Source: Escherichia coli (GTDB lineage: Bacteria > Pseudomonadota > Gammaproteobacteria > Enterobacterales > Enterobacteriaceae). From it: a stretch of 64,000 nucleotides of DNA. Both the position numbers and the translations under genes were made by a program. The notes under the pieces were generated by a model. That model saw only the letters and a list, made by a program, of their open reading frames with translations, was not told the DNA's origin and did not search any database. Position 1 is the stretch's first letter. Each line of letters starts with the position of its first letter. Shown here in pieces: positions 61,176 through 63,194 of this stretch. The stretch lies in the NCBI RefSeq assembly GCF_044647545.1, contig NZ_CP172818.1; one strand, 5' to 3'.

Positions 61176-62408
61176 TCACTGCTCCTCTGCCAGCTCGGCA
61201 GCCTGATGTTGGCGCACGCGATTAAGCAATCCCGCCAGGGTGAAAACGACGATAACGCCCGCCACGACGGCTAACAGATGAAACGGCAAGCGACCGCCGT
61301 TAAACCACAGCCACCGGCCGATTTCGACCGAGACAGACATCACCATCAGGATCACCATATTCAGCGATGCGGAGACGGTCCCTTTCGGTAAGTTATTGGA
61401 AAACAGCGTAAAGCGGAATAAGGTCGGGAAGATCAAACCAATCCCGAAAGCATACAAACTGGTGCCCAGCACCGACCACAGCCATACGTGCGGTGACAGC
61501 AGATTGCCGATAATCAACAGCGCGAGGCCAACCAGTTGAATGGGTACGGCACGCCAGATAAAGCGCGGTTCGGTCGGATCTTTAACGAAACGCGCCACGA
61601 TGGCATTCGCGACAATCACCGCGCCGAACACCGGAACCTGTGTCCAGGCGAACTGCGAGGTCGTTAAGCCGCCTGCGTCAATCAGGATCACCGGCGAGAC
61701 AGCCACCCAACTCATCATTGGGATATAGCTTAAAGAGATGGTTGCTGCACCAAAGAGGAACTGCCGATTGCAAAAGACATTACGAAAATCGCGCAAGACG
61801 CTTTTGGCGCTAAATGAAACCGCGCCGCGCTTCACCGTCTCTGGCATCGCCAGCAGTAAGCCAACAAATGAGATAAAACCCATAATCGCAATGATGGCAA
61901 AAAGGACTTTCCAGTGTACAAAGTGCATCAGAGCTGCGCCGGAAAGCGGGCCGATAATCGGCGCAATCAGTACGATGGAGGTGATAATCGCCATCAACCT
62001 GATCCCTTTTGTCTGGCCGAACGCCTCCTGCACCGTGACATAACCAACGGTGGCAATAAAACAGATACTGGTGCCCTGAATTGCACGCGCGATAAGAAAC
62101 TGTGTCATAGACGTTGTGAACATTGTCGCAGCGCAGGCAAGGGTAAATATTAGCGCCCCGGTAATCAGCACCGGCCTGCGGCCAATCCTGTCGGAAAGCG
62201 GCCCCAGCAGCCACTGTAACGCCATACCGCCCGCGAGATAGAGACTGACGGCTGCCGGGGCCAGACTGACATCGGCATTAAAATCACGGACCACATTAAT
62301 GATCCCCGGCTGAATCAGGTCCGTCGACAGGTACGCGGCAAAATCATACAAAATCAACGCCATCGGGAAAAACAGCGGGGCTATCCTCTTTCTCAGGGGG
62401 GAAAGGGA
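61176..62408 (-). CDS. mdtM: MFS multidrug efflux pump MdtM; the 5' ~14 codons and start codon are degraded by block 3
   Basis: Clean MFS sequence runs from ...[25 protein letters not shown] to ...[14 protein letters not shown]. Upstream of about 62378 the frame reads [26 protein letters not shown], which is not MdtM-like. The 410-aa native start would fall at 62408, and no ATG is present there. Confidence 0.85.
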
Positions 62409-63194
62409 GAAAGACGGAGAGGCCGCGCAGGGATCGGAGACCCGGAGGTGCAACCGGAGGGGTGGGGGGGCGGGGGCCGGGGGGGTGGAGGTGTTGGGGG
62501 GGGGCAGGGAGACGGCGAGGTGCTTGCGTTTCTGTTGCCGCGTTTGGGGGAGGGAGAGGGGAGGGGGAGGGGGGGGGGAGTGTGGGGGGGGGGGGGGGGA
62601 GGGGGGGGGGGGCTGAGGGGGGGGGAGCGGTGGGGCTGGAGGGAGGCGGGGGCCGCGGGGTGGTGGGCGGGGCGGGGGGGGGGGGGCGGCGGGGGGCGTT
62701 TCCCGGGGGGGGGGGGCAGGCGAGGGGGGGGAGGGAGAGGGGGGAGCGGTGACGGCCCCTGGGCTTTTTTGGGGGAGGAAGGAGGGGGGGGGGGGGGGGG
62801 AGGAGAGAGGGCGGGGGGCGGGGGGGGGGGGGGGGGGGGGGGGGGGGGGGGGGGGGGAGAGGAGAGGGGGGGAGCGGGGAGAGGGGGTGCCGCCGGTGCG
62901 GGGGGGGGGGGGGGGGGGGGGGGGGGGGGGGGGGGGGGGGGGGGGGGGGGGGGGGGGGGGGGGGGGGGGGGGGGGGGGGGGGGGGGGGGGGGGGGGGGGG
63001 GGGGGGGGGGGGGGGAGGGGGGGGGGGGGGGGGGGGGGCGGGGGGGGGGGGGGTGTCGTGCTCGCGATGCCACGGAGGTGGCGGCGTGTTGGCTGTGGTG
63101 GAGGGACCGGCGCTTTCTACGTTGCCCTCGGCGCGGTCGGTCCTGTCGCGCGCTTCGGGCGCCCTAGGGGAGGGATAAGAGCGATCGGTGCGAA
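62378..63194. other. Anomalous G-dominated low-complexity block 3 (116-nt G run); not credible as coding sequence
   Basis: G runs are at 62820-62867 (48 nt), 62900-63015 (116 nt), 63017-63038 and 63040-63053. The poly-Pro (minus strand) and poly-Gly (plus strand) ORFs are trivial translations of these runs. Confidence 0.9.

Follow-up and report, generated by a model that had tools for sequence, protein, structure and literature searches.

A G-rich artefact block between mdtM and yjiA of an Escherichia coli chromosome and the probable deletion of the immigration-control region at its site

In Escherichia coli K-12, the interval between yjiA and mdtM is 19,389 nt long and contains mrr, hsdRMS, symE, mcrBC, yjiV/T/S/R and rpn, i.e., the immigration-control region (ICR). 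Many SE15-type genomes are without the ICR altogether. In SE15, the points that match the two edges of the block described here (window 62381 and 63327) are 1,824 nt apart and enclose a dienelactone-hydrolase fragment, an IS1 pseudogene, brnT and brnA. Moreover, mdtM and yjiA are at most 1.3 kb apart in 11 complete genomes, most of which carry IS1A between the two genes. The laboratory Delta(mrr-hsdRMS-mcrBC) K-12 strains, like the chromosome described here, are without the restriction cluster beside yjiA.

Phase-variable and G-quadruplex tracts measure tens of nucleotides at most, lie in promoters or 5′ coding regions, and are conserved in relatives. Long G runs can also originate in the instrument: the dark cycles of two-colour Illumina sequencing are called as G, which overwrites bases without deleting them. 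Nanopore errors, for their part, are dominated by deletions, which are tied to fast translocation, and nanopore substitutions are biased toward A and T (PMC8486125).

The window, i.e., the whole 64,000-nt stretch of DNA that was analysed, contains between mdtM and yjiA a block of 945 nt (62382-63326), the composition of which (65% G, with a 116-nt G run, in a genome of 50% GC) is incompatible with that of the host. Within the block, GC in 100-nt windows climbs to 0.84-1.00, with a GC skew of up to +1.0, versus a GC of 0.50 in the remaining window. The larger part of the block is 817 nt of G-rich junk of no particular strand (62382-63198), with G runs of 38, 116, 22 and 14 nt. Base counts over 62378-63194 are 568 G, 100 C, 75 T and 74 A; the same segment holds thirteen G runs of at least 9 nt, namely the four just given and nine others of 9-17 nt. 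The 116-nt run, which the first-pass annotation had reported between mdtM and yjiA, is read directly in the sequence at 62900-63015 (plus strand), while the run reported there as 48 nt measures 38 nt (62820-62857). By simple arithmetic, the number of 116-nt G runs expected in 64 kb at 26% G is about 1e-63.

The earlier view of the tract as non-coding and non-biological, whether a base-call or consensus artefact or in-fill, holds. That the G tract is an artefact of some kind is, in our opinion, practically certain, and it encodes nothing functional. That mdtM and yjiA are separated by a genuine insertion, rich in G and bearing homopolymers, has a sole point in its favour: the sequence stands in the record. 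Against such an insertion count the absence of a homologue, the truncation of mdtM, the recurrence of its signature on two templates, IS1 and IS2, elsewhere in the window, and a neighbouring mrr tail with ten single-base deletions in about 130 nt; in addition, a run of 116 nt far exceeds any stable bacterial tract known to us. We consider a genuine insertion scarcely conceivable. It is just as hard to credit that the chromosome physically contains the G tract, in full or shortened, and that the sequencer rendered it badly; such a tract could have arisen, e.g., where a deletion junction underwent runaway slippage or template-independent synthesis. A phase-variable homopolymer or G-quadruplex element was likewise rejected, the run being 116 nt long, lying inside 817 nt of junk and missing from all relatives.

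Clean sequence borders the block on both sides. On the left, mdtM (61176-62381, minus strand) is intact from codon 10 to the stop and is 99.9% identical to the SE15 gene over positions 28-1233, with zero gaps. Compared with the genes annotated in SE15 and K-12, it is without the first 27 nt, i.e., nine codons including the start, and not about 14 codons as had first been estimated. The alignment with K-12 stops at the same base as that with SE15 (62381). On the right, clean sequence resumes at 63327, 6 nt past the yjiA stop. The segment 63327-64000 is 100% identical to SE15-type sequence and covers yjiA gene positions 290-957; the 3′ part of yjiA itself (63333-64000, minus strand) is clean and runs off the end of the window. 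Thus, identity to natural E. coli (SE15, K-12 and BUCT2930) ends at 62381 and restarts exactly at 63327. Both flanks are 99.9-100% identical in many of 5,426 complete E. coli genomes, and the interior is found in none. The departure on the mdtM side is abrupt, with zero residual similarity beyond 62381, and on the yjiA side the sequence recovers stepwise, from junk through 85% identity to 100%; the gradual decay described earlier does not hold for the mdtM side.

Outside such blocks, the window reads throughout as a natural E. coli chromosome segment, because its differences from SE15 are concentrated at third codon positions (50, 20 and 247 differences at positions 1, 2 and 3, respectively, in 33 genes) and because its reading frames are largely intact: 32 of the 33 aligned frames are without an internal stop, and yjiC, which is partly aligned, shows one. 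The same two features rule out a wholly synthetic window. A panel of relatives covers the entire window except for three blocks, a 5-nt spot at 268-272, and the panel's own gap. Around that spot, a patch at 268-285 has 18 nt where BUCT2930 has about 90 nt, and it has the same look as the blocks.

The right end of the flagged block is not pure junk. The segment 63199-63291 (plus strand) aligns to the 3′ end of a K-12-type mrr, in agreement with the degraded Mrr C-terminus reported at first pass. It corresponds to approximately the last 99 nt of the gene and is frameshifted by single-base deletions. It is followed by a garbled REP, or hairpin, of no particular strand between mrr and yjiA (63292-63326). 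Taken together, 63199-63326 (128 nt) is 85.5% identical to the K-12 mrr 3′ end with its REP, and differs by 10 deleted bases (7 of which are T), 4 inserted bases and 6 substitutions. This segment is matched in 951 genomes, all of them within the 80-90% identity band, the best among the matches listed being 84.5%. Left of 63199, no similarity to mrr is detected (z = 0.4). The exact REP sequence is absent from all 5,426 genomes and seems to mix the alleles of K-12 and SE15. Beyond it, the clean flank with yjiA is of the SE15 type, which adjoins brnA, not mrr, in the genomes inspected, so that a mixed K-12/SE15 REP beside an SE15-type yjiA appears odd for simple read noise.

The REP is one of several features that would suit synthetic or model-generated in-fill, in which a masked stretch is filled by a generative process that drifts into homopolymers. 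It resembles an interpolation of two natural alleles; in addition, runaway G followed by re-locking on real sequence is reminiscent of degenerate generation, and the block is missing from every public collection searched. The flagged block itself permits a test of in-fill over the mrr tail only, and the rest of the evidence comes from the two sister blocks discussed below.

Alignment to K-12, which had been proposed as a check on the breakpoints, places the left end at 62381 and leaves 19,272 nt of the K-12 interval without a counterpart in the window. With mdtM and yjiA 945 nt apart and zero hsd or mcr genes between them, the absence of the K-12 interval from the window, as noted in the first-pass annotation, is borne out except for the mrr tail; the size of 20-30 kb given there for that interval was too large. 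Other E. coli with IS-associated ICR loss, either with IS1A (EC23HZZ201 and USMARC-51688) or with an IS1 pseudogene and brnTA (SE15-type genomes), likewise have mdtM and yjiA 1-2 kb apart and are without hsd and mcr. In those genomes, however, mdtM is intact and an mrr remnant is absent, whereas here mdtM is short of nine codons and the mrr tail is kept. Moreover, those genomes have a recognisable IS, whereas none of the elements tried can be recognised in the flagged junk. Matching mdtM-mrr breakpoints were found in no natural complete genome, two of the 11 short-interval genomes having been inspected. A laboratory K-12 deletion strain as the source was rejected, since the genes shared with K-12 are 97-99% and not approximately 100% identical, the window is without the idn operon, and it carries the fim::IS1 deletion of 307 non-K-12 genomes.

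These comparisons bear on a further explanation, in which an intact ICR (about 19 kb in K-12) was replaced by 945 nt through a mis-join or a chimeric junk read. Such a collapse would account for the sole recognisable remnant being the end of mrr, which is exactly the neighbour of yjiA in ICR-positive genomes, and for a left breakpoint that lies about 10 nt from the point at which the K-12 and SE15 mdtM 5′ sequences diverge, i.e., at the island boundary. It would also agree with the fact that the deletion is shared by no other genome. On the other hand, the only K-12 ICR trace in the junk is the mrr tail, and zero trace of hsd, mcr, symE or yji genes is detected.

The 817 nt left of 63199 were searched for a template in several ways. 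BLAST against the 5,426 complete genomes matched a single stretch, itself junk, in NZ_CP116925.1. The left junction, searched for exactly, was absent from genome and metagenome collections, and three junk-derived ORFs were absent from the protein collection by exact look-up. A local alignment was also used that charges little for a lost A/T or an extra dominant base, weights matches by rarity, and is calibrated on decoy segments from the window. With this alignment, a 12-element IS panel (IS1, IS2, IS3, IS4, IS5, IS30, IS150, IS186, IS66, ISEc52 and an IS911 fragment among the elements tried) gave z of at most 2.6 for the flagged block; in the sister blocks, it yields z = 20-25 for IS1 and IS2. 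A wider scan, in 1-kb tiles, took in the K-12 ICR and the SE15 interval as well as IS elements and gave z of at most 3.4 in the flagged block, with no tile above decoys. Two specific candidates were rejected as well: IS1, which gave no signal under two scoring schemes, and garbled DNA from upstream of mdtM, for which the first 90-180 nt of junk scored z of about 0 against the K-12, SE15 and L013 types.

The same corruption occurs three times in the 64-kb window (2213-2815, 42880-43544 and 62382-63326). The blocks show no mutual similarity, and they are thus not copies of one garbled element. At the two sister blocks, in contrast to the 817 nt left of 63199, the natural template can be recognised.

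The block at 42880-43544 (minus strand), which emerged, like that at 2213-2815, from a scan of 60-nt windows with GC of at least 0.72 and of runs, is 46% G, includes a 25-nt G run, and represents a garbled IS1 together with 9 nt of unique DNA, the 777 nt of this template having shrunk to 665 nt. When the junk was concatenated and searched with BLAST, IS1 was matched in this block. In the alignment of 43016-43266 to 313 nt of IS1B, identity is 73% and the differences comprise 65 deletions, 3 insertions and 16 substitutions; the IS1 alignment has z = 25-29 versus locally shuffled or decoy sequence. A predicted natural sequence was built from the left flank, an IS1 in reverse orientation and the right flank; with a match defined as at least 80% in one place, an intact IS1 is present, with exactly these flanks on either side, in 307 complete E. 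coli genomes, and in the best 12 listed of the 307 the whole predicted sequence is found in a single alignment piece. Over 4,072 nt of the left flank, BUCT2930 and the window are 100.000% identical, and relative to this genome the junk stands in for 9 nt of unique DNA and a 768-nt IS1. Judging by these genomes, what IS1 mediated here is an ordinary loss, typical of the lineage, of the DNA from fimB into the 5′ part of fimH, and at 42880-43544 evidently only the rendering of IS1 is wrong.

The block at 2213-2815 (plus strand) is C-rich, being 47% C and 4% T; its C runs measure 11 and 14 nt. BLAST of this block against the 5,426 E. coli genomes gave zero matches. The A/T-tolerant alignment, by contrast, recovers the K-12 IS2 in it, with z of about 20 versus decoys. 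Specifically, 2229-2789 is collinear with K-12 IS2 100-1105 (L005 8458-9463), so that 1,006 nt are represented by 561 nt, and nearly all differences in the traceback are deletions. Over the whole element, 1,331 nt are reduced to 603 nt, i.e., about 55% is deleted. At its left end, IS2 has lost about 70 nt in the block, and the first 16 nt of junk, CCCCCCCCCCCTCCAG, resemble remains of that end, GGCCCCCTGAATCTCCAG. The flanks of this block are just 16 nt apart in 450 genomes, and the K-12 copy of IS2 lies about 1.1 kb from the equivalent site, in the same orientation.

The sister blocks argue against in-fill. Within 42880-43544, IS1 is best kept mid-block, 136 nt from either flank, and within 2213-2815, IS2 is tracked over 1,006 nt. 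A filler blind to the true sequence would not keep elements in register and yet fail at the ends. Because both blocks follow their hidden templates collinearly far from the flanks, blind in-fill is disfavoured, and with it the first-pass suggestion of a generated sequence. The deletion bias, being base-specific, looks like that of a corruption acting on real sequence, and similar junk is present in a RefSeq assembly. Synthetic in-fill thus seems to us improbable.

The signature of the corruption is best defined on the IS1 template, where deletion rates per natural base are 0.32 for A, 0.32 for T, 0.18 for C and 0.07 for G, deletions stand to substitutions as 4:1, and all three insertions are G. 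A/T-rich stretches vanish wholesale and G/C homopolymers are inflated, and at the sister blocks the unique flanks are base-perfect. The effect is strand-symmetric, two blocks being G-rich and one C-rich. The errors in the mrr tail enumerated above have the same signature as those of the IS1 block. Since the mrr remnant is unique sequence and is nevertheless garbled, the corruption is not strictly limited to repeats.

Neither of the instrument artefacts introduced above reproduces this signature in full. The blocks share with two-colour Illumina poly-G the preference for G, the long pure G runs and, on the opposite strand, the C-rich junk (2213-2815); they differ from it in the excess of deletions over substitutions and in being longer than a short read. 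With nanopore errors, they share the dominance of deletions and the clustered skips, whereas the published substitution bias is toward A/T and the blocks favour G. The coincidence of two of the three blocks with IS elements may point to bad repeat handling as the faulty step, for which gap filling from poor reads and polishing or consensus without usable coverage are candidates.

We propose that a real stretch of chromosome entered the record through a failed or unpolished consensus or base-call at a place that the assembler could not resolve. The faulty channel would drop A/T-rich sequence, make almost only deletions, and inflate homopolymers of G or, on the opposite strand, of C. The real DNA behind the flagged block would then begin with some segment that is plausibly a mobile element and would end, next to yjiA, with the REP, preceded by the final ~100 nt of mrr; a deletion from mdtM codon 10 into mrr would have removed the ~19-kb yjiPQ-mcrCB-symE-hsdSMR-mrr region. 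Because the junk in the sister blocks amounts to 45-86% of the length of one contiguous element and abuts its true neighbours, the 945 nt would, by analogy, most likely represent real DNA of an estimated 1-2 kb, in which a mobile element may be included.

The sister blocks also separate the two options left by the first-pass annotation, namely, a real deletion with a badly resolved junction and a wholly artefactual collapse. Each of them is a compressed single real element at a real junction, for which reason a real deletion is favoured. In terms of length, sister junk renders one element of 0.8-1.3 kb at 45-86% of its length, without skipped kilobases, and a 19-kb template treated alike would have left 8 kb or more. 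That an intact ICR collapsed is, in our opinion, unlikely, though not to the degree that in-fill is. The reading that we prefer, an artefact block at the site of a genuine deletion that starts at mdtM codon 10, ends within mrr and takes with it the ~19-kb ICR, is reasonably probable when taken in full.

The junk of the flagged block has a public parallel in E. coli MLI104K2 (NZ_CP116925.1), a RefSeq genome labelled 'complete', in which BLAST pairs the flagged junk with a stretch at ~2,384,000 at 67% over 656 nt. That stretch lies beside the prophage gene nohA, is composed of G and A only across all of the ~2.3 kb read, and sits inside an annotated CDS of 12,174 nt, a 'hypothetical protein'. 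Like the block described here, it is G-dominated, has long G runs, is without a homologue, abuts real genes, and returns to normal sequence through a ragged, homopolymer-inflated zone. It differs in being almost pure G/A, whereas the flagged block is shorter than 1 kb and contains C and T, and it contrasts with the sister blocks, which still follow their templates. A search for literature on strain MLI104K2 found none.

Junk of this class thus reaches 'complete' public genomes. The corruption erases mobile elements and their junctions and yields spurious ORFs, poly-Gly and poly-Pro, that reach 239 aa, and its blocks truncate real genes, here mdtM, fimH and intB. Gene-content, IS-census and restriction-system calls made from this assembly are unsafe near such blocks. 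As to the organism, the strain is probably one without the mcrBC-hsd-mrr region and without the fim operon; the flagged block itself matters for data hygiene, not for biology.

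Two further corrupted stretches of the window are renderings of insertion sequences. The C-rich block at 2213-2815 (47% C, 4% T) lies between a truncated P4-type integrase gene (intB) and a phosphoethanolamine-transferase pseudogene, and its flanks are separated by only 16 nt in 450 complete genomes. This block represents IS2, rendered collinearly with roughly 55% deleted. The G/C-rich block at 42880-43544, which contains a 25-nt G run, is a garbled IS1. Among complete E. coli genomes, 307 carry an intact copy of this element between exactly the same flanks. There it has replaced the segment from fimB into the 5' portion of fimH, so the strain lacks type 1 fimbriae.

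The corruption spares some IS-like sequence in the window, since an IS1F-type IS1 variant at 20664-21439 is clean. This variant shows about 91% identity to IS1A/B and 98.5-99% to the IS1 pseudogene of the mdtM-yjiA interval in the relatives SE15 and BUCT2930.

The window has a mosaic make-up. Next to leuX, the KpLE2 region (1-12000) is K-12-like (99.1%), with IS4 and IS30 occupying the K-12 sites, whereas the fim-to-mdtM part (21437-62381) is nearest to BUCT2930/SE15-type genomes (99-100%). At 267-297 the window lacks the idnR-idnT-idnO-idnD-idnK operon, which takes up 5.1 kb of the K-12 sequence (L005, 268-5367). In the window yjgR adjoins ahr, as it does in BUCT2930, and the absence of the operon is probably a natural polymorphism. 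Within the yjgR-ahr intergenic region, the 18 nt at 268-285 (GAAAGGGGCGCAGG...) stand against about 90 nt in BUCT2930 and show the same signature of A/T loss and G enrichment; this stretch may be a small fourth corrupted patch or, alternatively, a natural deletion.

The mdtM-yjiA junk produces long spurious ORFs: two poly-Gly ORFs on the plus strand (62448-63167, 239 aa; 62749-63258, 169 aa) and a poly-Pro ORF on the minus strand (62393-63073, 226 aa), which a gene caller could annotate as proteins. In NZ_CP116925.1 (E. coli MLI104K2, a RefSeq 'complete genome'; region of about 2,383,600-2,395,800), G/A-only low-complexity sequence falls inside a 12,174-nt CDS annotated as 'hypothetical protein', beside the prophage gene nohA; the portion inspected, about 2.3 kb, was junk throughout. 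Such sequence inside an annotated CDS is a problem of database quality.
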